Positions 4,701 through 27,200 of a stretch of DNA of 62,182 nt are shown here, piece after piece (within the stretch, counting starts at the first letter, position 1; every line of letters starts with the position of its first letter). Source of the stretch: an uncultured Candidatus Nemicrothrix sp. (GTDB taxonomy: Bacteria > Actinomycetota > Acidimicrobiia > Acidimicrobiales > MedAcidi-G1). The stretch covers positions 1-62,182 of the forward strand of contig CAYWBE010000001.1 in assembly GCA_964456295.1 (NCBI GenBank), given 5' to 3'. A model generated the notes under the pieces. The model was not told the DNA's origin. It saw only the letters and a list, made by a program, of their open reading frames with translations, and searched no databases. The position numbers and the translations under genes are program-made.

Positions 4701-5939
4701 ATGACCGAACCGTCGGCCGTCGACGCCCCGTCGTGGAACCCCTTCGACCCGGCGTTCCTGACCGACCCCTACCCCACCTACGCCCGGCTCCGTGACGAGG
4801 ACCCGGTCCACCGCAACGCCCTGGGGATCCTGATCGTCAGCCGCTACGACGACACCCACCAGGTGCTGCGCGACCCCCACACCTCGGTGAAGCGGTTCGA
4901 GTCGTCGATCGACCTGCCCGAGCACATGCTGCGGCTCCGTAACCGGGGTGCGGACCGCCCACCGTCGATCCTGGCGCTGGACCCCCCGGACCACACCCGG
5001 CTCCGCAAGCTGGTCCAGCGCACGTTCACCCCCCGGTCCATCGCCCGCATGCGGGACCGCACCACGACCATCGTGGACGACCTGCTCGACGACCTGGCCG
5101 GCCGGGACGGCGACGACCCCATCGACCTGATCGCCGACTACGCCTTCGTCATCCCGTTCGCAGTGATCCACGACATGCTCGGCCTGCCCGACGCCGACGT
5201 GGAACGGGTGCGGGCCTGGTCGCACGCCATGACCCAGACCCTGGAGCCCTACCTCACCCCCGAGCAGGTCGACGCGGCCATCGCCGGCGGCGACCACATG
5301 GATTCCTACCTGCGGAACGCCATCGCCTGGAAGCGCCGCGAACCGGCCGACGACCTGCTCTCCGACCTGGTCGCCGTGGAGGCCGACGGCGACCGGATGG
5401 ACGCCGACGAACTGCTGGCCATGACCAACCTGCTCTTCGTGGCCGGCCACGAGACGACCGTGAACCTGATCGGCAACGGCACCCACGCACTGCTCCGCCA
5501 CCCCGACCAGCTGTCCCAGGTACGCAACGACGAGTCGGTGGACGACACGGTGGCCGACGAGCTGCTGCGCTACGACAGCCCGGTCCAGACCTCGGGTCGG
5601 CGGATGATGCACGACGTGGAGGTGGGCGGCGTCGAGGTGCCGGCCGGCGAGATGGTGCTGACCGCCCTGGGAAGTGCCAACCGCGACCCCCGCTTCTGGG
5701 GCGACACCGCCGACCAGTTGGACGTGACCCGGGCCGACGCCAACCGGCACGTGTCGTTCGGCAGCGGCGTCCACCACTGCCTGGGCGCCGCGCTGGCCCG
5801 CATGGAAGGCGAGATCGCGGTGACCCGGCTGGTCCGACGCTTCCCCGACCTTGCCCTGGCCGCCGAGCCCACCTACAACGCCCGGATCATCCTCCGGGGA
5901 CGCGAGGCCATGCCGGTCACCCTGGGCCGGGCTGCCTGA
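4701..5939 (+). CDS. cytochrome P450 (no. 1)
   Basis: 412 aa. I-helix VAGHETT, EXXR DELLRY, heme-Cys loop FGSGVHHCLG. A TAGCGT -10-like hexamer lies 7 nt before the ATG (leaderless type). Confidence 0.92.
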   Translation: MTEPSAVDAPSWNPFDPAFLTDPYPTYARLRDEDPVHRNALGILIVSRYDDTHQVLRDPHTSVKRFESSIDLPEHMLRLRNRGADRPPSILALDPPDHTRLRKLVQRTFTPRSIARMRDRTTTIVDDLLDDLAGRDGDDPIDLIADYAFVIPFAVIHDMLGLPDADVERVRAWSHAMTQTLEPYLTPEQVDAAIAGGDHMDSYLRNAIAWKRREPADDLLSDLVAVEADGDRMDADELLAMTNLLFVAGHETTVNLIGNGTHALLRHPDQLSQVRNDESVDDTVADELLRYDSPVQTSGRRMMHDVEVGGVEVPAGEMVLTALGSANRDPRFWGDTADQLDVTRADANRHVSFGSGVHHCLGAALARMEGEIAVTRLVRRFPDLALAAEPTYNARIILRGREAMPVTLGRAA

Positions 5940-7350
5940 CCCGCCCGGGACACGTCACGGCACAGAACAGGGCACCGGCGGCGAAGATGGCCGACAGGAG
6001 CGTCCACACCCGGTGGTGGGCAGCCAACGGTCCGAGGTGGCGGGCCCCGGAGAACACGGCGATGGCGACGGCGACGCCCGATGCGAAGCCGATCGAACTC
6101 AACGTCCGCAACGTGGCCCCGGCCGTGGCGAAGCGGGCCGGTGGTACGTCCCGCAGGCCGAGGGAGGCATAGGTGGCGAACGAGCAGGCCACCCCCACCC
6201 CGAGGAACAGGTGGGCGGGCAGGATCGTGGTGGCCCACGAGGACTCCATGGTGACCGTGGACCGCAGCCACAGCCCGTTGACCGACGACATCAGGGCGCC
6301 AAATACCAGGATGTTGCGGTGGCCCACCCGGTCCACGATCGCCCCGACCGGTCCGCCGAGGACCGCCGAGAGCGCCGGCCCGACGACCACCCCGAAGCCG
6401 GCGGCCAGCACCGACCACCCCCAGAGTTCCTGGAGGGTGAGGGTGTGGAAGAGGATGGAGGCGATGAAGGCCGTGACGAAGAACACCTGGCCCACCCCGG
6501 CCGACCAGAACGACCGGATGCGGAACAGCGACAGGTCCAGCAGGGGACTGGGGTGGCGGGCCGACCGCACCAGCAGGAGGCCGACCAGCACCAGGCCGGC
6601 GACCGCCGAGGCCACGGTGGCGCCCGAGGTGTAGCCCCACTGCGCGCCCTGGACCACGGCCAGCAGGACGAGGGCCACCCCGCAGGTCCCGGCCGGCACG
6701 CCGACCATGTCGAAGCCGCCCCGGGCGTCCGGGTCACGGGACTCCCGGACGAACCGGGGCGTGGTCGCCAGGATCATCGCCCCGACGGGAACGTTCACGA
6801 AGAACACCCACCGCCAGGAGAGTGCGTCGATCAGCAGCGCCCCCATGGTCGGTCCGATGGCCGCGCCGAGGGCCGCCGAGGCCCCCCACACGGCGATGAC
6901 CAGCGACCGCCGCGACGCCGGAAACTCGGGGAGGATCATGGCCAGCGACGACGGCCCGAGGATCGACGCACCGACGCCCTGGACGATCCGGGCACCGATG
7001 AGGAGGCCCGTGGTGGTGGCCAGCCCCGACAGCAGCGAGCCGAACACGAACACCGCCACGCCGATCAGGAACAGGCGGCGGCGCCCCTTCTGGTCGGCCA
7101 GGCGGCCGGCCAGCAGCAGGAACGCACCCGAGGCGATCGAGTAGCCCGAGAGCACCCACGACAGGCCGGCTGCACTGGATCCGAGGTCCCGTCGCATGGA
7201 CGGGAAGGCCACGTTGACGATGGAGATGTCGATGGTGGTCAGCAGGGCAGCCAGCGTGGACACCGCCAGGGCGATCCAGGCCCGCCGTTCGACCACTTCG
7301 TCTCCGGCTCCGCCCGTCGGCGCCGGGATGGCCCCCGTCTCCCTGTCCAT
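5917..7350 (-). CDS. MFS transporter, DHA2 (EmrB/QacA-like, 14-TMS) family
   Basis: 477 aa and highly hydrophobic. Motifs LLAGRLADQKGRRRLFLIG and WRWVFFVNVPVG are typical of DHA2. It overlaps P450 no. 1 convergently by 23 nt. Confidence 0.85.
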   Translation of the reverse strand: MDRETGAIPAPTGGAGDEVVERRAWIALAVSTLAALLTTIDISIVNVAFPSMRRDLGSSAAGLSWVLSGYSIASGAFLLLAGRLADQKGRRRLFLIGVAVFVFGSLLSGLATTTGLLIGARIVQGVGASILGPSSLAMILPEFPASRRSLVIAVWGASAALGAAIGPTMGALLIDALSWRWVFFVNVPVGAMILATTPRFVRESRDPDARGGFDMVGVPAGTCGVALVLLAVVQGAQWGYTSGATVASAVAGLVLVGLLLVRSARHPSPLLDLSLFRIRSFWSAGVGQVFFVTAFIASILFHTLTLQELWGWSVLAAGFGVVVGPALSAVLGGPVGAIVDRVGHRNILVFGALMSSVNGLWLRSTVTMESSWATTILPAHLFLGVGVACSFATYASLGLRDVPPARFATAGATLRTLSSIGFASGVAVAIAVFSGARHLGPLAAHHRVWTLLSAIFAAGALFCAVTCPGRVRQPGPG

Positions 7351-7360
7351 CGGGGCGACG

Positions 7361-8194
7361 CTAGGGGTGGGGCACCCTCATGGCGTACTCGGCCACCGTG
7401 CAGCCCACGGCGAAGATGGGGATCGGGGCGTAGAACCGCACCGTCCCCTCTGCGCCACCCGCCGCCGCGCTCACCGTGAGGAAGGTCCGGATCTCGAAGC
7501 CCCCCTGGCCGGCGTCGGCGTAGACCCGTGCGTCGTCGTAGTCGAGGAGGGCGTCGCGGTCGTTGCGGCACCAACGGTCCAGGAAGTCCCGGTCCCACGC
7601 CTCGTTGATCTTCCCGGAGTCCGGGGTGGCCGGCCAGTGGGAGATGCCCCCGGTTCCCACCAGGGCGATGCGCTCGGGCACCGAGTCGGCGGCCCTCCTG
7701 AGCGCCTCGCCGAACGTCCACGCCCGGTGCAACGGCGTGAGCGGCGGGCCCTGGCAGTTCACGTTGACCGGCACGACCGGGAGGTCGAACCGGGGGGTCA
7801 GGAAGTGGAGGGGTACGGCGATGCCGTGGTCGAACAGCCACTCCTCGGCATAGGCCACGTCCACGGTCTGCATGACCTCGGCGACCAGGCGCTGGGACAG
7901 GTCGCGGTTCCCCGGGGCGCGGAACTTCGGGATCCTCAGCCAGTCCGGATCCTCGATGGGGCCGTCGTAGTGGTCGGCCATGCCCATGGCGAAGGCCGGC
8001 ATGTTGTCCATGAAGAAGTTGGCGAAGTGTTCGGCGGCCACCACCACCAACGCCTCGGCCCCCGAGGCCTCGATGGCGGTCCGCATCGAGTCGAGGGCCT
8101 CGACGAAGGCACCACGAACCTCCGGGTCGGCCTGGTCGGCCCGGCCGGTGATGCCCGGGGCGTGGCTGCACACGCCGGCGTAGACGAGTGGCAC
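7361..8194 (-). CDS. class III extradiol ring-cleavage dioxygenase, catalytic LigB-type subunit
   Basis: 277 aa. N-terminus MPLVYAGVCSHAPGITG, plus AAEHFANFF and GTGGISHW, which are LigB/HpcB-family histidine motifs. GTG start. Confidence 0.85.
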   Translation of the reverse strand: MPLVYAGVCSHAPGITGRADQADPEVRGAFVEALDSMRTAIEASGAEALVVVAAEHFANFFMDNMPAFAMGMADHYDGPIEDPDWLRIPKFRAPGNRDLSQRLVAEVMQTVDVAYAEEWLFDHGIAVPLHFLTPRFDLPVVPVNVNCQGPPLTPLHRAWTFGEALRRAADSVPERIALVGTGGISHWPATPDSGKINEAWDRDFLDRWCRNDRDALLDYDDARVYADAGQGGFEIRTFLTVSAAAGGAEGTVRFYAPIPIFAVGCTVAEYAMRVPHP

Positions 8195-8195
8195 G

Positions 8196-8591
8196 TCAGG
8201 CCCCCGCGTCCCCGCCGCCGGTTCCGTCGGTCCCGCCGCCGCGGTAGCCCAGCTCGACGTCGTGGGCGTCCACGCCCTGATAGCCGGTCATGGCGTACAC
8301 GCCCTCGCGCACCGGGCCGTGTTCGGCGATGCCGTCGCGCATCTGCTGGAGGTAGTCGGCCCACTCGATGCCGTGGAAGGCGGCGAAGTGCATGAGGATC
8401 TGCCCGTTCACGCCCAGGTGGAACAGGTACCCGACGTCGGGGCCAACCAGGGCGGCCACCTCGTCGTCGACCAGGTCGTCGGCCCGGTCGAAACCCGCCA
8501 CGGCCGCCGCCCGGTCGTCCCGGTAGCGGTCCTGGAGTTCAGAACTCCGGTTCAGCTGGTACAGGAACTTCTGGACGGCGTAGAGGCTCAC
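8196..8591 (-). CDS. LigA-type small subunit of the aromatic ring-opening dioxygenase
   Basis: SLYAVQKFLYQLNRSSELQDRYRDDRAA...LHFAAFHGI resembles protocatechuate 4,5-dioxygenase alpha chains. I place the start at the in-frame GTG at 8591, behind a GGAG and 4 nt after the upstream stop. The longer track ORF (to 8684) would overlap the ALDH gene. Confidence 0.7.
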   Translation of the reverse strand: MSLYAVQKFLYQLNRSSELQDRYRDDRAAAVAGFDRADDLVDDEVAALVGPDVGYLFHLGVNGQILMHFAAFHGIEWADYLQQMRDGIAEHGPVREGVYAMTGYQGVDAHDVELGYRGGGTDGTGGGDAGA

Positions 8592-15747: not shown

Positions 15748-16872
15748 CTACTCGCCGCCCAGGTTGAGGGTCACGTCCACCCGCCGCCAGTTCTTGCCGG
15801 TGGTGTCCACGCCGCGGTTCTTCAACATCTCCACAGCCGCCTCGGCGTACTCCGTCGTGTAGGCGCCGGAATCGGGTGCTGAGGCGAGGATCCCTTGGCT
15901 AGTCGCCACGTCGATGGTCTGGGCCCATAGGCCCCCGTCCATCACACCAGCCCCGTCAGGCGACGGCCAGATCAGGCCATTGATCTCGTTCATCTGCCAT
16001 GCCTGATGTGACGCACCAAGCGATGAACCGTTGTTGAGCACGATCTCAACGCAATTCGCTGAATTGTCACGGCAGTACATCCAACCCTCAAGGGAGGCAG
16101 CCACAAAGCGGGTGGTGATGTCGGCGTAGTCGGCGTCGCCGAGCCGTGCTCCGTCGGCCCACAGGGCGTCTTGGAGCATGGCCGTCCCTTCGTCGTTCCA
16201 ATCGATGACCGCTAGGTCGTCCTCGGTGACACGCTTACCTGTAGCCGGGTTGAGCGACTCAAGCATCTGGGCGTACTCGTTGTAGATCATCGCCTGGGCG
16301 GCGTCGATCTCTCCATTGAGCAGGGCCAGCATGTCAAAGCTCTGCTGAACCAACTCATAGTCGCTGGACGGGTCGAGGCCCGCCTTGCGCGAACCGGCTA
16401 GGAGCTCAAACTCGTTGCCCCATCCCCAGTTGCCGACCACCTTGCCAGCCAAGTCCGCTGGGCTCTCAATGCCGGCGTCGGCCCACGAAACCTGCAGGGT
16501 TCCCGAACGCTGGAACACCTGGGCCACGTTGACGATGTCCATGCCCTCCTCGCGCGGGACCAGGGCCTTGGGCACCCATGACACGGCAAAGTCCACGGCT
16601 CCTGAAGCCAACTGCTGATGGGGGGCAATGTCGACCCCTCCTTCGCGGATCTCTACATCGAGGCAGTATTTCTCGTAGATCCCCTCGTCGGCGGCCGCGT
16701 AATAGCCCGCGAACTGCGCCTGGGTAAGCCACTGCAACTGCAACGAAACAGAGTCAACCGATTCGCAGTCGCCAATGCCGATCGCGGCTTCGTCACTGCC
16801 GCAGGCAGTGGCAAACAGCGTCAGGACTGCCAGCACCGCCAGCAGTCTCGTCGTCAATCGCTTCTTCATCAT
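15748..16872 (-). CDS. ABC transporter substrate-binding lipoprotein, NMT1/THI5 (NitT/TauT, ThiY-like) family
   Basis: The start is taken at MMKKRL... with a lipoprotein signal (LFATAC-GSDE). LQLQWLTQAQFAGYYAA is the NMT1-type core. ATGA overlap with the permease stop. Confidence 0.8.
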   Translation of the reverse strand: MMKKRLTTRLLAVLAVLTLFATACGSDEAAIGIGDCESVDSVSLQLQWLTQAQFAGYYAAADEGIYEKYCLDVEIREGGVDIAPHQQLASGAVDFAVSWVPKALVPREEGMDIVNVAQVFQRSGTLQVSWADAGIESPADLAGKVVGNWGWGNEFELLAGSRKAGLDPSSDYELVQQSFDMLALLNGEIDAAQAMIYNEYAQMLESLNPATGKRVTEDDLAVIDWNDEGTAMLQDALWADGARLGDADYADITTRFVAASLEGWMYCRDNSANCVEIVLNNGSSLGASHQAWQMNEINGLIWPSPDGAGVMDGGLWAQTIDVATSQGILASAPDSGAYTTEYAEAAVEMLKNRGVDTTGKNWRRVDVTLNLGGE

Positions 16873-17681
16873 TCCCTCCCGGGTGTAGTTGTCAACTCGC
16901 CTTCCGCCATCGCCGATCGCCAAGGCATGCTTGCACGCTCAACTAGCAGGGCTATGGCGAACAAACCTAGGCCAAGAGCCGAGGCGACTCCGATGGCGGC
17001 CCAAGCAACGTCATACCTCACGAATGCGACGTTAGATGTGATGACGTTGCCAATGCGATCCTGGGGGCCACCAAAGTATTCGGCCACAATCGCGGCGATT
17101 ACCGACAGGGGCGCCACCAGCCGGAGGGAGTTGGCGAAAAATGGAAGGGCGTTGGGAACTCGCACCTCCCGAAAGATCGTCCACTTGCTGGCCGCGTAGG
17201 AATGCATGAGCTCAATCTCGTCGGGATGTACCGCTGTGAGACCTCGAGATGTGTTGATGAAGACGGGGAAAAAGACCACGGCGATTACTACAGACTGGTT
17301 GCTGAGCGTGCCGGTGATCCCGAACCAGGCATTGAAGATGGGGGCAAGGGCCACTATCGGCGTGGCGTTGACGACCACGGCAAGTGGTGTAAGACCCTCT
17401 TCGAGCGTACGAAAGCGCGTGGTCAAGAAAGCCAGCGCTACACCGGCCATGATGCCGATCAGCAGGCCGCTTACCGCGATCCAGCCCGTCTCCCATATGG
17501 CGTGGCGCAGAACGGGCCAGTTGTCCGCAAGCTCTTCCACGATCGACGTGGGCCTCGGCAACAGGAACTCCCGAATTCCGAAACCCTTTACGACCGCCTC
17601 CCAGAGCAGGAGACCGACCACACCCACCGTTATCGGCGGTCCCAGGACAGAAGCCCGGCCACGAAGTCGCCGCACCATCAC
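16869..17681 (-). CDS. ABC transporter permease (NitT/TauT family)
   Basis: 270 aa and multi-TM, with a BPD-transporter EAA-type loop (SYAASKWTIFREVRVPNALP). Confidence 0.85.
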   Translation of the reverse strand: MMVRRLRGRASVLGPPITVGVVGLLLWEAVVKGFGIREFLLPRPTSIVEELADNWPVLRHAIWETGWIAVSGLLIGIMAGVALAFLTTRFRTLEEGLTPLAVVVNATPIVALAPIFNAWFGITGTLSNQSVVIAVVFFPVFINTSRGLTAVHPDEIELMHSYAASKWTIFREVRVPNALPFFANSLRLVAPLSVIAAIVAEYFGGPQDRIGNVITSNVAFVRYDVAWAAIGVASALGLGLFAIALLVERASMPWRSAMAEGELTTTPGRE

Positions 17682-18472
17682 CCGCCGCCCTCCACGGCCC
17701 GAAGCGCTTCGCGGATTTCAGTCGCCTTCTCGAAGAAGGCTGGGTCCTGCCTCGTATCGTCACTGCGATCACCTAGGTCAACATCGACTACGGAGTGGAT
17801 ACGGCCGGGCCGTGGCGACAAGACCACGACTCGATTGGAGAGAAAGGCCGACTCAGGTACCGAGTGGGTGACGAATACGACGGTGGTCTGGGTTTCTCGC
17901 CAAATCCGAAGTAGTTCAAGCTGCATGTGCTCACGGGTCATCTCATCGAGTGCCCCGAAAGGCTCATCCATCAGCAACAACTTCGGCTGGAACGAGAGCG
18001 CCCGGGCAATGGACACACGCTGTTGCATGCCGCCGCTGAGCTGGCGGGGATAATGCCCACCGAAGTCCTCAAGCCTTACCAGTCCAAGCATTTCTGCTGA
18101 CCTGGCTGACCTCTCGTCTCTTGACCACCCACGGAGTTCCAGCGGTAACTCGATGTTGGCTAGCACCCGGCGCCAATCGAATAATCCGGGATGCTGAAAC
18201 ACCATGCCGTAGTCCTGATCCAGGCGAGCCTCGTGGGCTGATTTGCCGAAGACCGTCACCGCTCCGGTAGTCGGGGCGAGCAAGTCACCGACCAGGCGCA
18301 AGAGAGTCGATTTGCCGCAACCGGAGGGGCCGATCAGCGATATGAACTCCCCAGCTTCAACGGTCAGATCGATGCCAGACAACGCCGCTACCTCGGAATC
18401 GCTCCCTTCGTTGAAGACCTTGGCAACCCCATCTATGACAACCGCCTTTTCTGCCGGAACTGGATTACTCAT
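17678..18472 (-). CDS. ABC transporter ATP-binding protein (NitT/TauT family)
   Basis: Walker A GPSGCGKST, signature LSGGMQQRVSIARAL, Walker B LLLMDEPFGALD. Confidence 0.92.
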   Translation of the reverse strand: MSNPVPAEKAVVIDGVAKVFNEGSDSEVAALSGIDLTVEAGEFISLIGPSGCGKSTLLRLVGDLLAPTTGAVTVFGKSAHEARLDQDYGMVFQHPGLFDWRRVLANIELPLELRGWSRDERSARSAEMLGLVRLEDFGGHYPRQLSGGMQQRVSIARALSFQPKLLLMDEPFGALDEMTREHMQLELLRIWRETQTTVVFVTHSVPESAFLSNRVVVLSPRPGRIHSVVDVDLGDRSDDTRQDPAFFEKATEIREALRAVEGGG

Positions 18473-19335
18473 GACGTGACCTCACCGGTTCGCCGCACCA
18501 CGATCCATTCGGCCAGAGAAACCAGTCCGAAAACCAGGAGACCTAGCACCGCCGCGCCAATCACGGACGCGTAGAGCCGCTCAGGCGAGACGGCGTATCG
18601 TTGCGCATATTCAAGGATTGCCCGTCCCAGACCGGTCTTGGTGCCGATGGAGATCTCACCGACGATCGACCCAACGACACTGAGCGTTGCTGCAATCTTC
18701 AATGCAGGGAACAGATAGACACGTGCAGCAGGAAGCCTCAATTTGACCAGGACTGTCCACCAGGGAGCTGCATAGGAACGCATTAGCTCCACGTGGTCGG
18801 AATCTGGAGACTGCAGGCCCCGAAGCGCGCTGACGGCGACTGGGAAAAACGTTAGGTAAGCAGCGATCAGTGAAATCGAAAGCATGTCGGGTAGATCCTG
18901 TTGGCGCCCCCAGGTCACCACGATCGGTGCTAGAGCGATCAGTGGGATCGTCTGGGACACGTTGATCCATGGAAGCAACCCACGCTCGGCAACCCGCCAA
19001 CGCAGCATCAGGATGGCCAAACCGAGGCCAACTGTCAGACCGAGAGTGAACCCGATTGCCGCCTCCTGAAGAGTGAACCAACCCTTCTTCAGTAGAAATA
19101 GGTATAGCGGCAACCGGGCCCGGCCATCTCGGACCTCTTCGAACAGTTCGTCGGCGATGTCCATTGCGTGAGGCATGGTGAGGTCATCGGTTGACGCTGG
19201 GAGGTCGATTGAAGTACCGGGCCAATAGTCACCAGTCTGTTGGCCAACCCACTTGTATCCCTCCCAGATACCGACCACGAGTAGCAGCGTTATGGCCGTC
19301 GCCACCACCACCCTCAGGATCCGACCGCCCTTCAC
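18469..19335 (-). CDS. ABC transporter permease (second membrane subunit)
   Basis: 288 aa and multi-TM, with an EAA-type loop (SYAAPWWTVLVKLRLPAARV). 4-nt overlap with the ATPase gene. Confidence 0.85.
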   Translation of the reverse strand: MKGGRILRVVVATAITLLLVVGIWEGYKWVGQQTGDYWPGTSIDLPASTDDLTMPHAMDIADELFEEVRDGRARLPLYLFLLKKGWFTLQEAAIGFTLGLTVGLGLAILMLRWRVAERGLLPWINVSQTIPLIALAPIVVTWGRQQDLPDMLSISLIAAYLTFFPVAVSALRGLQSPDSDHVELMRSYAAPWWTVLVKLRLPAARVYLFPALKIAATLSVVGSIVGEISIGTKTGLGRAILEYAQRYAVSPERLYASVIGAAVLGLLVFGLVSLAEWIVVRRTGEVTS

Positions 19336-19430
19336 GACCTGTCCCCGATGCAGAGGGTCCGACCATCAGTAGGTTCATTGCCACCCCGGTCTGCGCACTC
19401 CGACAAGCAACAATCCCTGGGCCTCACGGT

Positions 19431-20333
19431 TCAGCCATCTGCCGATTCGCCGTCGGGTGGACTCCCGGGTGCAAACCGGCGCTGCCTCTCCATCAAGCTG
19501 CACCAGTCCCAATTGGCTCCCCCTAGGGAGTCGACGTCTGCCAGGAACTGGCCGACCAGTGCTGTGACCGGTAGCGAGACGTTCATCGAGGATGCCTCAT
19601 CGAGGACGAGCCCGATGTCTTTTCGCATCAGGGTGGTGGAGAAGCCGAAGTCGTAGTCCCCTTCAAGCATCTTCTCGGCCCGGTTCTCCATCTGCCACGA
19701 CGTAGAGGAGCCCTGCAACATGGCCTCGACCACGTTCTCGACGTCCAGCCCCGCCCTGGATGCGAAGTCGAGACCCTCGGCGAGTGCCTGGCATAGCCCG
19801 ACCACGCAGATCTGGTTCGTCATCTTGGTCAGTTGCCCCGCGCCCGGACCACCCATCCGCCTAATTCGCGACGCGTACGACCCGACCACCGGCTCGGCCT
19901 TTTCGAAGGCGCCCTCGTCGCCGCCGACCATCACCGTGAGGACACCCTTCCGTGCACCGTCGACCCCGCCGGAGACGGGGGCGTCCAGGAAATACGCGTC
20001 AGCCGCAGAGACGCTCGCATTGACAGTCCGGGCCAGCCGGGCTGAAACGGTCGAGTGGTCAACCCATACGGCCCCGGCCGCGATGGTGGGCACCAGTTCG
20101 TCGGCCACGACCTGTAACTCCTGGTCGGCAGGAAGGGAGGTGATGATGAACTCCGCGCCGGTGACCGCAGATGTCACGGAGTCGGCCACCTCACCACTGT
20201 TTTCATCCGCCCACCTGCTCGCCAGACCGTCGACTACGTCGAACACAACGAGCTCATCGACCGCAGCGCTCTCGGACAGATGGGCGGCCAGGTGCCAGCC
20301 CATGCGTCCGAGGCCCAGGACTGCGATCCTCAT
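19431..20333 (-). CDS. NAD(P)-dependent beta-hydroxyacid dehydrogenase (3-hydroxyisobutyrate dehydrogenase family)
   Basis: 300 aa. N-terminal Rossmann motif MRIAVLGLGRMG, plus DAPVSGG and a 6-PGDH-like C-terminal domain. Confidence 0.85.
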   Translation of the reverse strand: MRIAVLGLGRMGWHLAAHLSESAAVDELVVFDVVDGLASRWADENSGEVADSVTSAVTGAEFIITSLPADQELQVVADELVPTIAAGAVWVDHSTVSARLARTVNASVSAADAYFLDAPVSGGVDGARKGVLTVMVGGDEGAFEKAEPVVGSYASRIRRMGGPGAGQLTKMTNQICVVGLCQALAEGLDFASRAGLDVENVVEAMLQGSSTSWQMENRAEKMLEGDYDFGFSTTLMRKDIGLVLDEASSMNVSLPVTALVGQFLADVDSLGGANWDWCSLMERQRRFAPGSPPDGESADG

Positions 20334-20923
20334 GCTGGTACTCCGGGACCGCCCCGATCGGCCAGGCTGAAGCCACCGGTCAGGCGGGCATCGACCCTGC
20401 CGCCGACCGCCATGGCCAGGATCAGCACCAGTTCATCGGGACGTGGAGCGTCAGGCACTCCGACCTCTATCGCGTCGTAGTGGCTTCCGACATAGGACCA
20501 TTCGAGGTGCGTCAGGGGCACGTCCAGCCTTGCTCCGAGCGGGCCCATCTTCTTGGTCGACGGAACGATGGCTTCACCCTTGCCTAGGGCTGCCCGCATC
20601 CCCCCGCCCCCCGGTATGTGCCACATCGCACCATGCTCAATCTCCCCTGCCGCTCCGACAATCGCCCCCTTGCCGTAACTGTCGATCTCGTCTCGGGCAC
20701 CCCCCAGGTGGCTGATGAGTAGTTCGCCGAGGTGTTCTCCCAGTTCACGTAGCTCCTCCACTGCCGGGCTGAGGTCGTCCACGTAGCCGCCTACGAACGG
20801 GTTGCTCACGACTACGGCCACCGCTCCCTTCAGGGCAGGGCGGGCGGGCTGCGGCCCGAAGTCGTGGTAGATCTCCTCGATGGCCACGCAGGTCTTTCGT
20901 TGGACGAACAGCGGGGCCGTCAT
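20330..20923 (-). CDS. DUF1185 / 'amino acid synthesis' family protein (PF06684-like)
   Basis: 197 aa. VVVSNPFVGGYVDDLSP...SYGKGAIVGAAGEIEHGAMW...DVPLTH...VPDAPRPDELVLILAM matches my recollection of this family. Its function is unknown. Confidence 0.68.
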   Translation of the reverse strand: MTAPLFVQRKTCVAIEEIYHDFGPQPARPALKGAVAVVVSNPFVGGYVDDLSPAVEELRELGEHLGELLISHLGGARDEIDSYGKGAIVGAAGEIEHGAMWHIPGGGGMRAALGKGEAIVPSTKKMGPLGARLDVPLTHLEWSYVGSHYDAIEVGVPDAPRPDELVLILAMAVGGRVDARLTGGFSLADRGGPGVPA

Positions 20924-20997
20924 GTCGTCCGAGGCCGACGTCTGGACCGGTTCCTGCCCGGCACCCCCAGTAGGTGAGTCGCCATCTCGATCTCCAG

Positions 20998-21999
20998 TCA
21001 GTCGCTCATGGTGGGGAGGATTCCCCGCCCGTATGCATCGAGGGTCTCATCCTGCTGGTCGTGCATGAGGTAAATGGCAAACTGGTCCACCCCGAGGGCC
21101 TCAAGTTCCCGGAGGCGTTGCACATGGGCCGCCTCGTCCCCCAAGATGCAGAAGCGGTCGATGATCTCGTCTGGCACGAAGTCGGTGTGCTCGTTACCGG
21201 TGCGACCGTGCTCGGCGTAGTCGTATCCCTGACGGCCCTTGATGTAGTCGGTGAGTGCGCCAGGCACCGTTGATCCGTCGGCGCCGTATCGCCCGACGAG
21301 GTCGGCCACGTGGTTGCCTACCATCCCGCCGAACCAGCGCACCTGGTCGCGTTGGTGGGCGATGTCTTCTCCGACATAGGCCGGGGCCACCACGGTGATG
21401 GTCAGCGACTCGGGGTCGCGACCAGCGGCAGCGGCCGACTTCCGGACCGCGGCAATGGTCCATTCGGCGATCTGTGGGTCAGCCAACTGCAGCACGAATC
21501 CGTCGGCCTTACGGCCGCACAGGTCCAACGCCTTGGGTCCGTAGGCGGCCATCCACATGGGGAGCGAACCGTCGTGGCGCCACGGAAAGGTCTGGGTGGT
21601 GCCGTTGTACTCGACGGTGTCGCCCTCGGCCAGACCCTTGATCACCGCCATGGACTCCTCGAGGGTGGCCAGGTTGCAGGGTTTGTTCCCTATGACCCGC
21701 ATGGCCGAATCGCCGCGACCGATGCCGCACACTGTGCGCTCGCCGTACATGTCGTTGAGGGTTGCGAACAGCGAGGCAATGACCGTCCAGTCGCGGGTCC
21801 CCGGATTGGTCACCATGGGGCCGACCACCATCTTCTCCGTAGCGGCCAGCATGGCGCTGTAGATCACGAACGGTTCCTGCCAGAGGACATGGCTGTCGAA
21901 GGTGTATGCGTGGGTGAAGCCCAGGGCTTCAGCCCGGGCGGCCAGTTCCACGACCCTCGAGGCAGGGGGGTCGGTCTGCATGACCACTCCGAACTCCAT
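20998..21999 (-). CDS. luciferase-like monooxygenase (LLM) class oxidoreductase, probably F420-dependent
   Basis: The start is taken at MEFGVVMQTDPP (ATG 21999). GFTHAYTFDSH, VGPMVTNPGTRDW and GIGRGDSA follow the Mer/F420-LLM pattern. The track ORF extension to 22260 overlaps mmsA. Confidence 0.72.
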   Translation of the reverse strand: MEFGVVMQTDPPASRVVELAARAEALGFTHAYTFDSHVLWQEPFVIYSAMLAATEKMVVGPMVTNPGTRDWTVIASLFATLNDMYGERTVCGIGRGDSAMRVIGNKPCNLATLEESMAVIKGLAEGDTVEYNGTTQTFPWRHDGSLPMWMAAYGPKALDLCGRKADGFVLQLADPQIAEWTIAAVRKSAAAAGRDPESLTITVVAPAYVGEDIAHQRDQVRWFGGMVGNHVADLVGRYGADGSTVPGALTDYIKGRQGYDYAEHGRTGNEHTDFVPDEIIDRFCILGDEAAHVQRLRELEALGVDQFAIYLMHDQQDETLDAYGRGILPTMSD

Positions 22000-22015
22000 C
22001 AGCTTCGCCGTCCCA

Positions 22016-23503
<1,488 letters not shown>

Positions 23504-23563
23504 CGATTTCTCCTTCGGGAGGCGGGCCGGTCAGGGCCACCGGCAACTGGAGTCGACTCGGGC

Positions 23564-24976
23564 CTACTGGAGATAGGTCGACAGGCCGCGTCGGAGATAG
23601 GCCCCGTGACCCTTCTCGCCAAGGTACGTGTCGTCCTCGATCAGAACCCGCCCCTTGGACATCACGGTGTCGACCTTTCCGTCGATCGTGTAACCCTCGT
23701 ATGCCGAGTAGTCCATGCTCATGTGGTGGGTGTCGACCGAGATCTCGGTCTTGGCCGCAGGGTCGTACAGCACGATGTCAGCATCCGAACCGGGGGCGAT
23801 CACACCCTTCTGCGGATAGAGACCGAACATGCGGGCCGGGGTGGTCGAACACGTCTCCACCCACCGCTCCAGACTGAGCTCACCCATCGCTACCCCCTGG
23901 TAGATGAGGTCCATCCGGTGCTCGACGCCGCCGATCCCGTTGGGGATGGCCCGGAAGTCGTCCTTCCCGAGCTCCTTCTGGTCCTTCATGCAGAACGGGC
24001 AGTGGTCGGTGGCCACGATGGCCAGGTCGTTGGTCCGCAAGCCCCGCCACAGGTCTTTGTGGTGGGTGTGCTCCTTGGTCCGGAGGGGGGGCGAGCAGAC
24101 GTAGCCAGCGCCGGCGAAACCGGGGGCCCCGAGGTGGTCCTCCAGGTTGAGGTAGAGGTACTGAGGGCAGGTCTCGGCGAACACGTTGTGCCCAGCGTCT
24201 CGGGCCTCGGCCACCCGTTCGAGGGCCTCGCTGGCCGAGAGATGGACAAAGTAGACGGGTGCTCCAGCCACTAGGGCCAACTGGATAGCCCGATTGGTGG
24301 CCTCACCCTCCATACGAGACGGCCGGGTGATGCCGTGGTACACGGGATCGGTCTGGCCCCGGGCGGCCGCCTGCTCGGCCAGCACGTCGATGGCGATGCC
24401 GTTCTCGGCGTGCATGGTGATCAGCGCGCCGTTGTTGGCCGCCTTCTGCATCGCCCGCAAGATCTGGCCGTCGTCGCTATAGAAGACGCCCGGGTAGGCC
24501 ATGAACAGCTTGAAGCTGGTGATGCCCTCGTCTACCAGCGAGTCCATCTCCTTGAGGGCCGCGTCGTCAACGCCACCCATGATCATGTGGAAGGCGTAGT
24601 CCACGGCGCATTCACCCTCCGCTTTGGAATGCCAGAGGTCGAGACAGTCGCGGACGTTTTCGCCGGTCTTCTGGACGGCAAAGTCGATGATGGTGGTCGT
24701 ACCACCCCATGCTGCGGCCCGGGTGCCGATCTCGAAGGTGTCACTGGCGAATGTGCCACCAAACGGGAGTTCCATGTGGGTGTGGCAGTCGATACCTCCA
24801 GGCACCACGTACTTGCCGGTGGCGTCGATGACTCGGTCCGCGCCCGACTCAGCGGCCTGTGCCGGTGCAGAGCCCGGGGCCATCACTGCGACGATGGAAG
24901 TCCCGTCGACCAGCACCTCGGCGGCATGGCGTCCTGTGGCGCTGACCACGGTCCCGTTCTTTATGAGTGTCGTCAT
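23564..24976 (-). CDS. pydB: dihydropyrimidinase / D-hydantoinase
   Basis: 470 aa. GGIDCHTHMELPF (HxH metal site), SFKLFMAY (carbamylated Lys), HAENG, and DHCPF near the C-terminus. Confidence 0.9.
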   Translation of the reverse strand: MTTLIKNGTVVSATGRHAAEVLVDGTSIVAVMAPGSAPAQAAESGADRVIDATGKYVVPGGIDCHTHMELPFGGTFASDTFEIGTRAAAWGGTTTIIDFAVQKTGENVRDCLDLWHSKAEGECAVDYAFHMIMGGVDDAALKEMDSLVDEGITSFKLFMAYPGVFYSDDGQILRAMQKAANNGALITMHAENGIAIDVLAEQAAARGQTDPVYHGITRPSRMEGEATNRAIQLALVAGAPVYFVHLSASEALERVAEARDAGHNVFAETCPQYLYLNLEDHLGAPGFAGAGYVCSPPLRTKEHTHHKDLWRGLRTNDLAIVATDHCPFCMKDQKELGKDDFRAIPNGIGGVEHRMDLIYQGVAMGELSLERWVETCSTTPARMFGLYPQKGVIAPGSDADIVLYDPAAKTEISVDTHHMSMDYSAYEGYTIDGKVDTVMSKGRVLIEDDTYLGEKGHGAYLRRGLSTYLQ

Positions 24977-25023
24977 GTTCTTCCCCCTTTAGTCCCCGTT
25001 ACAACCTCTGACCGTCCGGACGT

Positions 25024-26313
25024 TCAGCCCAGGCGTTCGATGATCCCGGCCAACACCGTTCCGGCCTCGTCGATCTCCTCTTCGGTGACCGTCATCGGCG
25101 GCGCGATTCGCAGCACGTTTCCGTACAACCCACCCTTGCCGATGAGAAGGCCGGCTGCACGTGCCTCCTCCATGATCCGTCCGGCGGCCACAGCATCGGG
25201 TTCGATGGTCCCGGGCTGAACCGTCTCCAACGCACGCATCAGACCCTTGCCCCGTAGTTCAGCGACTGCCTCCGAGGCGTCGACAGCGGGCTGCAGGTGC
25301 CCAACTAGACGCTCACCCATGCGAAGCGCGTGGCCCTGTATGTCGTGCTCGAGCATGTACCGGATTGTCGCCAAGGCACCGACACTGCTTAGGGGGTTCC
25401 CACCAAAGGTGGACAGGGAGTTGCCCGGTAGCGAGTCCATCAAGTCTGCGCTTGCCACCAAGCCACCGAGGGAAAGTCCGTTGGCGACACCCTTGGCGAA
25501 GGTCAGGACGTCGGGCACGATGCCGTGGGCTTGGTATCCCCAGAAGTGCTCGCCAGTCCGGCCCCAGCCGGTCTGGACTTCATCGGAGATGAAGATCACA
25601 CCACGGTTTTCGAGTTCTTTCTTCATAGCCCCGAAGAAGCCATCGGGGGGCGTGGCGAATCCGCCGACGCCCTGGATGGGCTCGGCAATCATGGCCGCCA
25701 CGTCGCCCGAGGTCATCATGTCGAAGACTTGGGTGAGGTCGTCGACGCAGGCAGCCGTGTAGTCCTCATCGTCGAGGTGGCGGAACGGGCTACGCAGCCG
25801 GTAGCCGCCATGCACGTAGTTGACCGACATCCCGCTGACGCTGGTCGGCGACCAGGACCTCTGGGCTGTGATGGCAATCGTGGTGAACGAACGTCCGTGA
25901 TAGCTGTTGCGCATGGCCAGGATCTGGTTTGACCGTCGAGCCGCCGTCGCCAACATGAGGGCGGCGTCGTTGGCCTCCGTACCCGACGTGGTGAAGAACA
26001 CCTTGGCGTCGGGGATGCCCGACAGCCTGGCAATCTCTTCGGCCAACTCGATCATGCACCCCGATAGGTAGAGCGTCGAAGTGTGGAACGTCTTAGGTGC
26101 CTGCTCCTGTACGGCCTTGGTGACCTCAGGGATGTTGTAGCCAAGGCTGGTGGTGAGGATCCCGCCGAAGAAGTCGAGGTAGCGGTTTCCCTCGACGTCA
26201 TAGACATGGCGTCCCTCTCCCCGGTCAAATGAGATCGGAGGGTCGTAATAGAGCGCCAGCCAGTTCGGCAGGACGGCCCGGTGCCTCTCGAGTAGTTCGG
26301 CGTTGGTGGTCAT
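25024..26313 (-). CDS. class III PLP aminotransferase (beta-alanine/beta-aminoisobutyrate or GABA type)
   Basis: 429 aa. FISDEVQTGWGRTG and the PLP-lysine context TFAKGVANG. Confidence 0.87.
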   Translation of the reverse strand: MTTNAELLERHRAVLPNWLALYYDPPISFDRGEGRHVYDVEGNRYLDFFGGILTTSLGYNIPEVTKAVQEQAPKTFHTSTLYLSGCMIELAEEIARLSGIPDAKVFFTTSGTEANDAALMLATAARRSNQILAMRNSYHGRSFTTIAITAQRSWSPTSVSGMSVNYVHGGYRLRSPFRHLDDEDYTAACVDDLTQVFDMMTSGDVAAMIAEPIQGVGGFATPPDGFFGAMKKELENRGVIFISDEVQTGWGRTGEHFWGYQAHGIVPDVLTFAKGVANGLSLGGLVASADLMDSLPGNSLSTFGGNPLSSVGALATIRYMLEHDIQGHALRMGERLVGHLQPAVDASEAVAELRGKGLMRALETVQPGTIEPDAVAAGRIMEEARAAGLLIGKGGLYGNVLRIAPPMTVTEEEIDEAGTVLAGIIERLG

Positions 26314-26357
26314 CGCGTCTCCCGCGGTGTGATTGGGCCCCTCGGGGCTAGATCGCT

Positions 26358-27200
26358 TCAGGCCTGTATCAGCGGGTCATACATGTCAGGACGACGGTCC
26401 CGGTAGAAGGCCCACTGGTTACGTACCTCATCAACCAGTTCCAAATCGAGGTCGCGCACGATCAGTTCCTCGTTCTGGTCGGAGCAGACGTCGCCCACGA
26501 ACTGTCCGCGGGGGTCCACGAAGTAGGTAGTGCCGTAGAAGTCGTTGTCACCCAGATCCTCGACCCCGACCCTGTTACTCGCGCCGACGTAGTACATGTT
26601 GGCCACCGCCGAGGCGGGCTGCTCGAGTTTCCAGAGGTAGGAGGACAGACCGCGACTGGTGGCCGACGGGTTGAAGACCATCTGGGCTCCATTGAGGCCA
26701 AGCGCCCGCCATCCCTCAGGGAAGTGGCGGTCGTAGCAGATGTATATGCCGACCCGACCGACGGCGGTCTCGAACACGGGGTACCCGAGGTTCCCGGGGC
26801 GGAAGTAGAACTTCTCCCAGAAGCCCTTGACCTGGGGAAGATGGGTCTTGCGGTACTTGCCGAGGTAGGTGCCATCAGCGTCGATGATGGCCGCCGTGTT
26901 GTAGAGGAACCCCTCCTGCTCCTTTTCGTACATCGGCAAGACGAGCACCATGCCATGCTTGGCTGCCAATTCTTGGAAACGCTTCGTAGTCGGGCCGTCG
27001 GGGATGGCCTCGGCGTAGTCGTAGAAGGCGGCGTCTTGGACCTGACAGAAATAGGGACCGTAGAAGAGTTCCTGGAAGCACATGACCCGAGCGCCAGCCT
27101 CAGCGGCCTCAGCCAGGTACTTCTCGTGGAGTTCGATCATTGACTCCTTGTCACCGGTCCAGCCCGTCTGGACCATCGCCGCCCGTACTTCGCTCGCCAC
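26358..27200 (-). CDS. pydC: beta-ureidopropionase (nitrilase-superfamily N-carbamoyl-beta-amino acid amidohydrolase)
   Basis: 280 aa. Catalytic Glu context CFQELF, Lys context KTHLP, Cys context ICYDRHFPE. GTG start behind aggagg. Confidence 0.85.
   Translation of the reverse strand: MASEVRAAMVQTGWTGDKESMIELHEKYLAEAAEAGARVMCFQELFYGPYFCQVQDAAFYDYAEAIPDGPTTKRFQELAAKHGMVLVLPMYEKEQEGFLYNTAAIIDADGTYLGKYRKTHLPQVKGFWEKFYFRPGNLGYPVFETAVGRVGIYICYDRHFPEGWRALGLNGAQMVFNPSATSRGLSSYLWKLEQPASAVANMYYVGASNRVGVEDLGDNDFYGTTYFVDPRGQFVGDVCSDQNEELIVRDLDLELVDEVRNQWAFYRDRRPDMYDPLIQA

Follow-up and report, generated by a model that had tools for sequence, protein, structure and literature searches.

Our subject is a 62,182-nt stretch of DNA from an uncultured Candidatus Nemicrothrix sp. 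of the Acidimicrobiia (the window, by which we mean the whole stretch that was analysed), and in particular a 333-aa luciferase-like (LLM) F420-type oxidoreductase encoded on its minus strand at 20998..21999. The gene lies in one tight run of eleven minus-strand genes (15748-27200), with gaps of 16-95 nt or 4-nt overlaps between them, and this run holds the enzymes of reductive pyrimidine catabolism without the dihydropyrimidine dehydrogenase (PydA or PreTA) that normally opens the pathway. We think that the LLM protein is probably an F420H2-dependent uracil/thymine reductase, and as such a non-homologous replacement for PydA; its substrate, reaction and direction we infer from gene content, family membership, F420 capacity and comparative linkage. 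The core of the argument is that all of the steps from a dihydropyrimidine to an acyl-CoA have enzymes here, that only the first step has none, and that the LLM is the only conserved gene left without a step, so that it fits the first. The initial annotation of this DNA had put forward the same replacement, with a DUF1185 protein as a possible helper: the LLM part of that idea is sustained by family, F420 genes, linkage and the absence of PydA, whereas the DUF1185 part, to which we return below, is not.

The association of the LLM with pyrimidine genes extends well beyond this contig. Among the best 80 of at least 600 LLM relatives in a species-level genome collection, in loci that come from Acidimicrobiia, Streptomyces, Kutzneria, Lentzea, Actinoplanes and others, a same-strand dihydropyrimidinase adjoins the LLM gene in 75/80 and a CN-hydrolase accompanies it in 69/80. 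An aminotransferase is found in 38/80 of these loci, a CoA-acylating (methyl)malonate-semialdehyde dehydrogenase (MMSDH) in 39/80 and, depending on the gene, the components of an importer in 30-43/80, with permease 1 downstream of the LLM in 37. The commonest arrangement, which is also the minimal recurring unit, consists of CN-hydrolase, dihydropyrimidinase and LLM with no aminotransferase, which amounts to PydC and PydB plus one further enzyme. A co-occurrence with pydB and pydC, which the initial annotation had suggested looking for in both of its candidates, is therefore seen for the LLM and not for DUF1185 (1/80 loci).

Much the same emerges from a phylum-wide profile of Actinomycetota, based on an even sample of 401 genomes that are each at least 90% complete. 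TIGR03842, the family to which the LLM belongs, exceeds its cut-off in 88/401, and 85 of these 88 also carry a dihydropyrimidinase of family TIGR02033, in 74 of them no more than 15 kb away; the three that do not are fragmented assemblies. Fisher's exact p for this co-occurrence is 4e-53, a value that is not corrected for phylogeny. As a control, nine genomes with a TIGR02033 protein and no LLM were inspected; the dihydropyrimidinase-like genes in them share no more than 35-62% identity with that of the window and lack an adjoining CN-hydrolase. Where neighbours were scanned (in seven of the nine), the genes sit in uric-acid-type (ygeX/ygeY/xdh-like) clusters, alone among unrelated genes, or in unclear context, one of them next to an OTCase and a Mer-like LLM of another kind, so that the pyrimidine-type dihydropyrimidinase of the phylum occurs almost only with the LLM.

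These patterns also bear on two other ways of reading the locus. According to the first, the LLM acts at a different point, either as an F420-dependent malonate/methylmalonate-semialdehyde reductase (comparable to PydE or RutE) or as a reducer of some other unsaturated cyclic ureide, with uracil left unreduced or reduced by some enzyme that has escaped recognition. Such a role would suit the characterised F420-LLMs (FGD, Adf and hydroxymycolate dehydrogenase), which are mostly alcohol/carbonyl oxidoreductases and are among its structural neighbours, and the substrates of such proteins may vary, given that a different Mer-like LLM occurs in a uric-acid-type cluster and that an F420-LLM has been proposed as a purine-ring reductase (PMC12507026). 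We nevertheless consider it unlikely, because the LLM is linked more tightly to the dihydropyrimidinase and the CN-hydrolase than to the aminotransferase that makes the semialdehyde, and because the commonest unit lacks this aminotransferase altogether. In addition, the semialdehyde already has two possible consumers in the window, MMSDH and a beta-hydroxyacid dehydrogenase, and on a Paracoccus plasmid (see below) it is an importer, and not the downstream enzymes, with which the LLM is coupled.

The second reading, whose uptake part the initial annotation had also raised as an alternative, is that the cluster takes up dihydropyrimidines that are already reduced, or 5-substituted hydantoins, and that the LLM is a conserved passenger which serves some unrelated purpose. 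Dihydropyrimidinases do also hydrolyse hydantoins, uracil and thymine are no more than putative ligands of the importer, and the CN-hydrolase falls under all NCBIfam equivalog cut-offs. On the other hand, a mere passenger would not be expected beside the dihydropyrimidinase in so many loci, in two phyla and with differing partners, and the gene that accompanies the dihydropyrimidinase most constantly would have no role. The CN-hydrolase is, moreover, nearer to beta-ureidopropionases (185-192 bits) than to D-carbamoylases (~100), the aminotransferase and MMSDH suit beta-alanine or beta-aminoisobutyrate and not the alpha-amino acids that derive from hydantoins, and a Leisingera relative of the cluster has an NCS1 nucleobase symporter as its transporter. 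Taken with these points, uptake of pre-reduced substrates strikes us as quite improbable.

If the first step is indeed an F420H2-dependent reduction, the supply of this cofactor is of obvious interest. The genome to which the window belongs is a metagenome-assembled genome (MAG), 2.1 Mb in size, 78.6% complete and made up of 361 contigs. It encodes FbiC (474 bits for the CofH part) and CofD/FbiA (325 bits) with an adjoining CofE-like FbiB, together with the NADPH:F420 oxidoreductase Fno (npdG), so the fbiA-C genes that the initial annotation had named as worth seeking are in place. Fno is split into two contig-end pieces (C38:33-317 and C335:1402-1674), which share a 17-residue overlap, implying that contigs C38 and C335 adjoin in the real genome. 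Several further F420-type LLMs are encoded in the same MAG. Across the phylum sample, CofD is found in 84/88 genomes with the LLM, compared with 156/313 of those without it (p = 4e-17, for genomes that are not phylogenetically independent), and in three of the four LLM-bearing genomes scored as CofD-negative there are cofD fragments. One of these (G372:C1:1460816-1461613) has cofD in three frames with a stop, and in another (G218:C9:71137-71439) it is a 100-residue fragment ~6 kb from the dihydropyrimidinase; both genomes keep their TIGR03842 gene. Sequencing error or real loss of the cofactor may lie behind these broken genes, and in the latter case they would be informative exceptions.

Plasmids of Alphaproteobacteria provide a further, and quite different, view of the same enzyme. 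In Leisingera caerulea plasmid NZ_CP081074, the gene for the LLM (TIGR03842, 506 bits) closes a cofG-cofH-cofD-cofC-cofE-npdG operon, which is divergent from pntAB, an omega-aminotransferase, an amidase of the M20 carbamoylase family, a hydA dihydropyrimidinase and an NCS1 nucleobase symporter. Here an unrelated amidase stands in for PydC and the transporter is of another family, and the link to the dihydropyrimidinase survives this exchange of partners. A Paracoccus plasmid carries the same cof-npdG-LLM operon, and immediately after it comes an NMT1-type ABC importer of the same family as that in the window (binding protein 154 bits; ATPase 40% identical to the window's), a pairing which suggests that the LLM acts on an imported compound, that is, at the first step. 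With F420 biosynthesis and an NADPH-dependent reductase encoded in one operon with the LLM on both plasmids, there is strong indirect support for the view that the LLM binds and uses F420 and not FMN. The Leisingera dihydropyrimidinase operon also contains a PntAB proton-translocating transhydrogenase (5245-8271 of locus L099), which suggests a dedicated NADPH supply for the reduction of F420 by Fno.

From all of this, we lean towards a broader proposal, namely that TIGR03842 proteins are single-subunit, iron-sulfur (Fe-S)-free F420H2:uracil/thymine oxidoreductases that would form the main Actinomycetota entry to the reductive pyrimidine pathway, and that the plasmid-borne cofGHDCE-npdG-LLM cassette in some Alphaproteobacteria would supply cofactor, recharger and enzyme together. 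As a donor, F420H2 is restricted to two-electron (hydride) transfer, and its potential is a little lower than that of NAD(P)H, which itself suffices for PydA. The consequences, were this correct, would be wide-ranging. This would be a fourth type of dihydropyrimidine dehydrogenase, evolutionarily unrelated to the other three, and F420 would gain both a specific function in central nitrogen and nucleobase salvage and a concrete job in soil, marine and sludge Actinomycetota, as well as in some marine Alphaproteobacteria. Hundreds of genomes could be given a correct annotation (there are at least 600 matches in the one species-level collection), and a small, metal-free enzyme would become available for biocatalytic pyrimidine reduction. 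The window itself adds an example from the Acidimicrobiia with a full route to acyl-CoA, a link to an importer and the recognition of DUF1185 as a separate module.

What, then, does the protein look like? Searches with hidden Markov models place the LLM at full length in TIGR03842 (F420_CPS_4043), with 566.1 bits against a cut-off of 295.45 and residues 2-331 aligned to model positions 1-329; this family is a 'hypothetical equivalog' named only 'LLM class F420-dependent oxidoreductase', with no assigned function. Of the 20 NCBIfam families that match the LLM at E<=1e-5, none is RutA, and those at the top are all F420-class LLMs; between the F420 and FMN subfamilies that the initial annotation had named, this points to the F420 side. 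The 'Mer/F420-LLM pattern' described there holds for the F420-LLM class, on the strength of both family match and fold, but the protein is not Mer itself, falling below both Mer equivalog cut-offs (NF002619, 131 vs 276 bits; TIGR03555, 110 vs 349).

A search of the PDB found no TIGR03842 member with a solved structure. The AlphaFold2 model of the LLM scores well (pLDDT 89.4, pTM 0.90) and, when it is compared with the PDB using Foldseek, the 17 top-ranking entries all belong to the F420-dependent LLMs (Mer, FGD1, FGD2 and Adf, with TM scores of 0.74-0.84), with FMN monooxygenases ranking lower (0.61-0.72). The nearest characterised relative is Mer (PDB 1z69, 8qpl), at 98 bits by sequence and a TM score of 0.77-0.84 by fold, and the two proteins both carry a G-x-G-x-G-D-x-A segment. 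They differ at Mer Glu6, the residue mutated in PDB 8qq8 (E6Q), whose position is taken by Val6 in the LLM and by Val in 33/33 family members; in addition, the Actinomycetota hosts are not known to make methanopterin. Asp35, Ser36, Glu42, Arg95, Asp97 and Cys284 are likewise invariant in the alignment of these 33 members, and a long lid segment (LLM residues ~217-283) is highly conserved. The catalytic His of FGD and Adf is present as His37, and we dropped the idea of naming a catalytic proton donor, as this His is not invariant across TIGR03842.

Comparison with the known enzymes of pyrimidine breakdown is instructive. In PydA, an FMN barrel resembling dihydroorotate dehydrogenase is combined with four Fe-S clusters and, in some cases, with an FAD/NAD(P)H domain. 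The LLM, by contrast, is a single luciferase-like barrel that has no Fe-S motifs, gives no match to the PreA model and is proposed to draw on diffusible F420H2; it is unrelated in fold to PydA and PreA, and so we propose it as a functional analogue and not as a family member. RutA is also of the LLM fold and acts on uracil, and we know of no other LLM in pyrimidine breakdown so far, but its ring opening is oxidative, consumes FMNH2 and O2 and depends on a flavin reductase. Unlike the Rut pathway, the cluster described here has no flavin reductase, and its constant partner, the dihydropyrimidinase, is an enzyme of the reductive route. In its proposed reaction and first-step position the LLM would be the same as PydA (which uses NADPH), PreT/PreA of E. 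coli (NADH) and PydAc of clostridia, a ferredoxin-dependent dihydropyrimidine dehydrogenase (PMC7332683), and as in PydAc the electron donor would match the redox metabolism of the host.

A related case comes from the uric-acid clusters of Chloroflexota, in which an F420 'luciferase-family' protein, as yet uncharacterised, has been suggested as a yanthine reductase (PMC12507026). The logic is the same, with an F420-type LLM in the place of a PydA-/YgfK-like flavoenzyme that would act on a uracil-like ring by reduction, and ahead of an amidohydrolase, although that system belongs to a purine pathway and has OTCase and ygeX/ygeY as its partners. We observed an actinobacterial cluster (L108, on G139:C142, 8108-13582) that resembles this F420 variant of the reductive uric-acid cluster (PMC12507026), and it combines a dihydropyrimidinase-like gene, a different Mer-like F420 LLM and an OTCase-family carbamoyltransferase. 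Its LLM is from another family than ours, scoring 189 bits on the Mer model and 105 bits on TIGR03842.

The other side of the argument is the absence of the usual first enzyme. No PydA/PreA-like gene is present in the window, just as the initial annotation had stated for both island and window, and a search of the whole MAG for the PreA family (NF006183) gave a best match of 101 bits against a cut-off of 335, which is not PreA and proved to be the class-1 dihydroorotate dehydrogenase PyrD (PRK07259, 277 bits, over cut-off). One might suppose that a canonical PydA/PreTA is hidden in the 21% of this genome that was not assembled, and that the LLM is irrelevant to ring reduction; with 361 contigs and the completeness given above there is certainly room for it. 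However, PreA exceeds its cut-off in 0/30 cluster-bearing genomes, several of them closed chromosomes, in a search for which E. coli served as a positive control, and no match was obtained in any of 23 genomes of the same order (98-100% complete), even at E<=1e-50. Indeed, although this is a textbook pathway, PreA is over cut-off in only 2/401 genomes of the phylum, neither of which carries the LLM, while 85/401 carry the second enzyme together with the LLM. We therefore give a hidden PydA next to no credence.

Apart from the LLM, the window has a single ene-reductase-like gene that might be considered as a ring reductase; it encodes a 724-aa Fe-S flavoenzyme of the FadH/OYE family (2434-4608, plus strand), which belongs to another operon and is not a PydA homologue. 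It was rejected for this role, being on the opposite strand, ~11 kb beyond the end of the importer, and near the LLM in 0/80 loci. The protein matches the mycofactocin-system OYE_2 model with 400 bits, below cut-off, and resembles BaiCD and bilirubin reductase; in the relative that carries the syntenic locus L092, its gene is syntenic with a P450 gene.

Several points weigh against our reading of the LLM, and we set them out together. Characterised F420-LLMs are mostly alcohol/ketone or imine oxidoreductases and not ene-reductases. In the literature we found no publication on the function of the TIGR03842 family and no biochemical or genetic experiment on any of its members, in a search that did not cover subscription journals. 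In 5/33 family members another residue takes the place of the catalytic His of FGD and Adf, and the genomes that make up our counts are not phylogenetically independent. Given that the MAG is 78.6% complete, the absence of PydA from it is weak evidence when taken alone, and PydA is so nearly absent from the phylum as a whole that its absence from LLM-bearing genomes does not discriminate by itself. On the Paracoccus plasmid there is no dihydropyrimidinase within 14 kb of the LLM. Finally, a TIGR03842 homologue with 72% identity to the LLM of the window, in a Binatia MAG (OZ241332.1; 10001-11002 of locus L026), has no pyrimidine genes around it, its neighbours being an enoyl-CoA hydratase, a thiolase, an acyl-CoA carboxylase fusion and a DNA methylase-like gene.

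Taking F420H2-dependent reduction of uracil or thymine by the LLM as the preferred reading, the run from 15748 to 27200 would be a single catabolic operon for pyrimidine bases, and the pathway would proceed as follows. Uracil and/or thymine would be brought in by the NMT1-type ABC system. The LLM, acting as an Fe-S-free, single-subunit functional stand-in for PydA/PreTA, would use F420H2 to reduce the C5=C6 bond, with the hydride going to C6 and a proton to C5, to yield 5,6-dihydrouracil or 5,6-dihydrothymine. The protonation of C5 would be carried out by an acid of the enzyme, much as in the ene-reduction of an alpha,beta-unsaturated amide, and Fno would recharge the F420 from NADPH. The dihydropyrimidinase would then open the ring, the CN-hydrolase would release beta-alanine or beta-aminoisobutyrate together with NH3 and CO2, the class III aminotransferase would convert these into malonate or methylmalonate semialdehyde, and MMSDH would deliver acetyl-CoA or propionyl-CoA.

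The genes that would encode these later steps, all of them on the minus strand, are assigned with varying precision. The run begins with the CN-hydrolase of the nitrilase superfamily (26358..27200; 280 aa; PF00795, 232 bits), our candidate beta-ureidopropionase (PydC). It reaches no NCBIfam equivalog cut-off, and among PDB relatives it scores nearly equally with N-carbamoylputrescine amidase (197 bits) and with the beta-ureidopropionases of Drosophila and human (192 and 185 bits, respectively), so that it is the gene context which favours PydC. Next is a class III, 4-aminobutyrate-transaminase-like aminotransferase (25024..26313; 429 aa; PF00202, 294 bits), which scores 210-236 bits with 4-aminobutyrate transaminases in the PDB and is a candidate PydD-like beta-alanine/beta-aminoisobutyrate aminotransferase. 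The dihydropyrimidinase PydB (23564..24976; 470 aa) and MMSDH (22016..23503; 495 aa) are far above the cut-offs of their families (TIGR02033, 553 bits vs 393, and TIGR01722, 701 bits vs 448.5), and the ATG of the LLM follows 16 nt after the MMSDH stop codon. The gene list, the coordinates, the length of the LLM and the 4-nt overlap between the DUF1185 and HIBADH-like genes given in the initial annotation all agree with our open reading frames (ORFs) and family searches.

The extended reductive Pyd pathway, reportedly described by Yin et al. 2019 with a PydD aminotransferase and a PydE malonic-semialdehyde reductase, has much in common with this scheme. In both, a class III aminotransferase after PydC would free the nitrogen of beta-alanine, and a reductase or dehydrogenase would then deal with the semialdehyde. 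Unlike the PydE route, the semialdehyde would here pass to a CoA-acylating MMSDH, and the only reductase-like candidate is the beta-hydroxyacid dehydrogenase that is coupled to DUF1185. For completeness, we note that the GlnR regulon of M. smegmatis includes a nitrogen-induced carbamoylase/hydA pair (PMC3662644); we could not connect that pair with an LLM gene, and we do not use it as evidence.

The importer genes are a continuation of the run (15748-19335), beyond the 19431-27200 that the initial annotation had considered. Permease 1 (18469..19335), the ATPase (17678..18472) and permease 2 (16869..17681) were identified as ORFs, with 4-nt overlaps between the ATPase and both permeases, and their homologues in the syntenic locus L092 match PF00528, PF00005 and PF00528, respectively. 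The substrate-binding lipoprotein (15748..16923) is of the NMT1/THI5 type (PF09084, 108 bits). Its longest ORF begins with a TTG codon and overlaps permease 2 by 55 nt; judging by the sequence, the true start is probably an internal Met, that of MMKKRL..., which leads into a lipoprotein signal peptide ending in ...LFATAC.

Between the LLM and the importer lie two genes that we regard as a story of their own. The first encodes the DUF1185, or 'amino acid synthesis' family, protein (20330..20923; 197 aa; PF06684, 212 bits vs 27) and the second a beta-hydroxyacid dehydrogenase of the HIBADH/tartronate-semialdehyde-reductase family (19431..20333; 300 aa; PF03446 and PF14833), and the two are joined by an ATGA overlap. 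It had been suggested in the initial annotation that DUF1185 might work together with the LLM, and one could accordingly imagine it as a required subunit or helper of the reductase, particularly as its gene is 74 nt downstream of the LLM in the window and takes the same place in the syntenic relative (L092/L093). This we hold to be very improbable: DUF1185 is absent from 79/80 LLM loci (the counts for DUF1185 and the HIBADH-like gene are 1-2/80, depending on the gene), and its translational coupling is to the dehydrogenase and not to the LLM. Close homologues of the two proteins (72-78% identity) are always paired in the loci we compared (L092-L097), with the 4-nt overlap again present in L094-L097. 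At L094/L095 the pair lies beside a branched-chain-type ABC importer and at L096/L097 it is divergent from an NMT1-type importer, in both cases with no LLM or pyrimidine genes. The suggestion of a joint action of DUF1185 and the LLM therefore falls away, and the pair is an independent two-gene module, inserted in a lineage-specific manner between LLM and importer, and not a partner of the LLM.

DUF1185 matches the solved structure PDB 3byq (E=2.7e-46); our AlphaFold2 model of it is only moderate (pLDDT 73). The solved homologues are hexamers with a chorismate-mutase-like fold, of unknown function, and their genes have been noted in the vicinity of ABC amino-acid transporters (PMC2954203). In the dehydrogenase, the GxGxxxK motif typical of beta-hydroxyacid dehydrogenases is retained, and the protein falls below the equivalog cut-offs of both HIBADH (TIGR01692, 163 vs 292 bits) and tartronate semialdehyde reductase (TIGR01505, 166 vs 341), and an assignment to the general beta-hydroxyacid dehydrogenase family is all that we would predict for it. 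As a guess, the pair might provide a side outlet or inlet at the level of malonate/methylmalonate semialdehyde or the 3-hydroxy acid.

Some minor observations concern the DNA itself. A scan of the operon for promoters and terminators gave no signal that exceeded shuffled controls. One apparent relative of the cluster, on a 'Pirellulaceae' MAG contig (CAZWOU010000198.1), has a mosaic composition: in its first ~4.9 kb, with a G+C content of 0.61-0.67, the CN-hydrolase, aminotransferase, dihydropyrimidinase and MMSDH are 90-93% identical to those of the window, while in the remainder, with a G+C content of 0.46-0.54, the LLM, DUF1185 and HIBADH-like proteins are only 79, 74 and 69% identical, respectively. 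This is probably a chimeric assembly or a mis-binned contig, or else a recombination joint that falls exactly at the MMSDH/LLM boundary. In the window, the overall G+C content of ~0.72 dips to 0.59-0.67 over ~14-28 kb, that is, across the operon, compared with 0.70-0.75 in the flanks. G+C at third codon positions is lowest in the importer genes (0.65-0.70) and reaches 0.79-0.85 in the catabolic genes, and the dip is far smaller in the syntenic relative L092 (0.67-0.70 vs 0.71-0.76).

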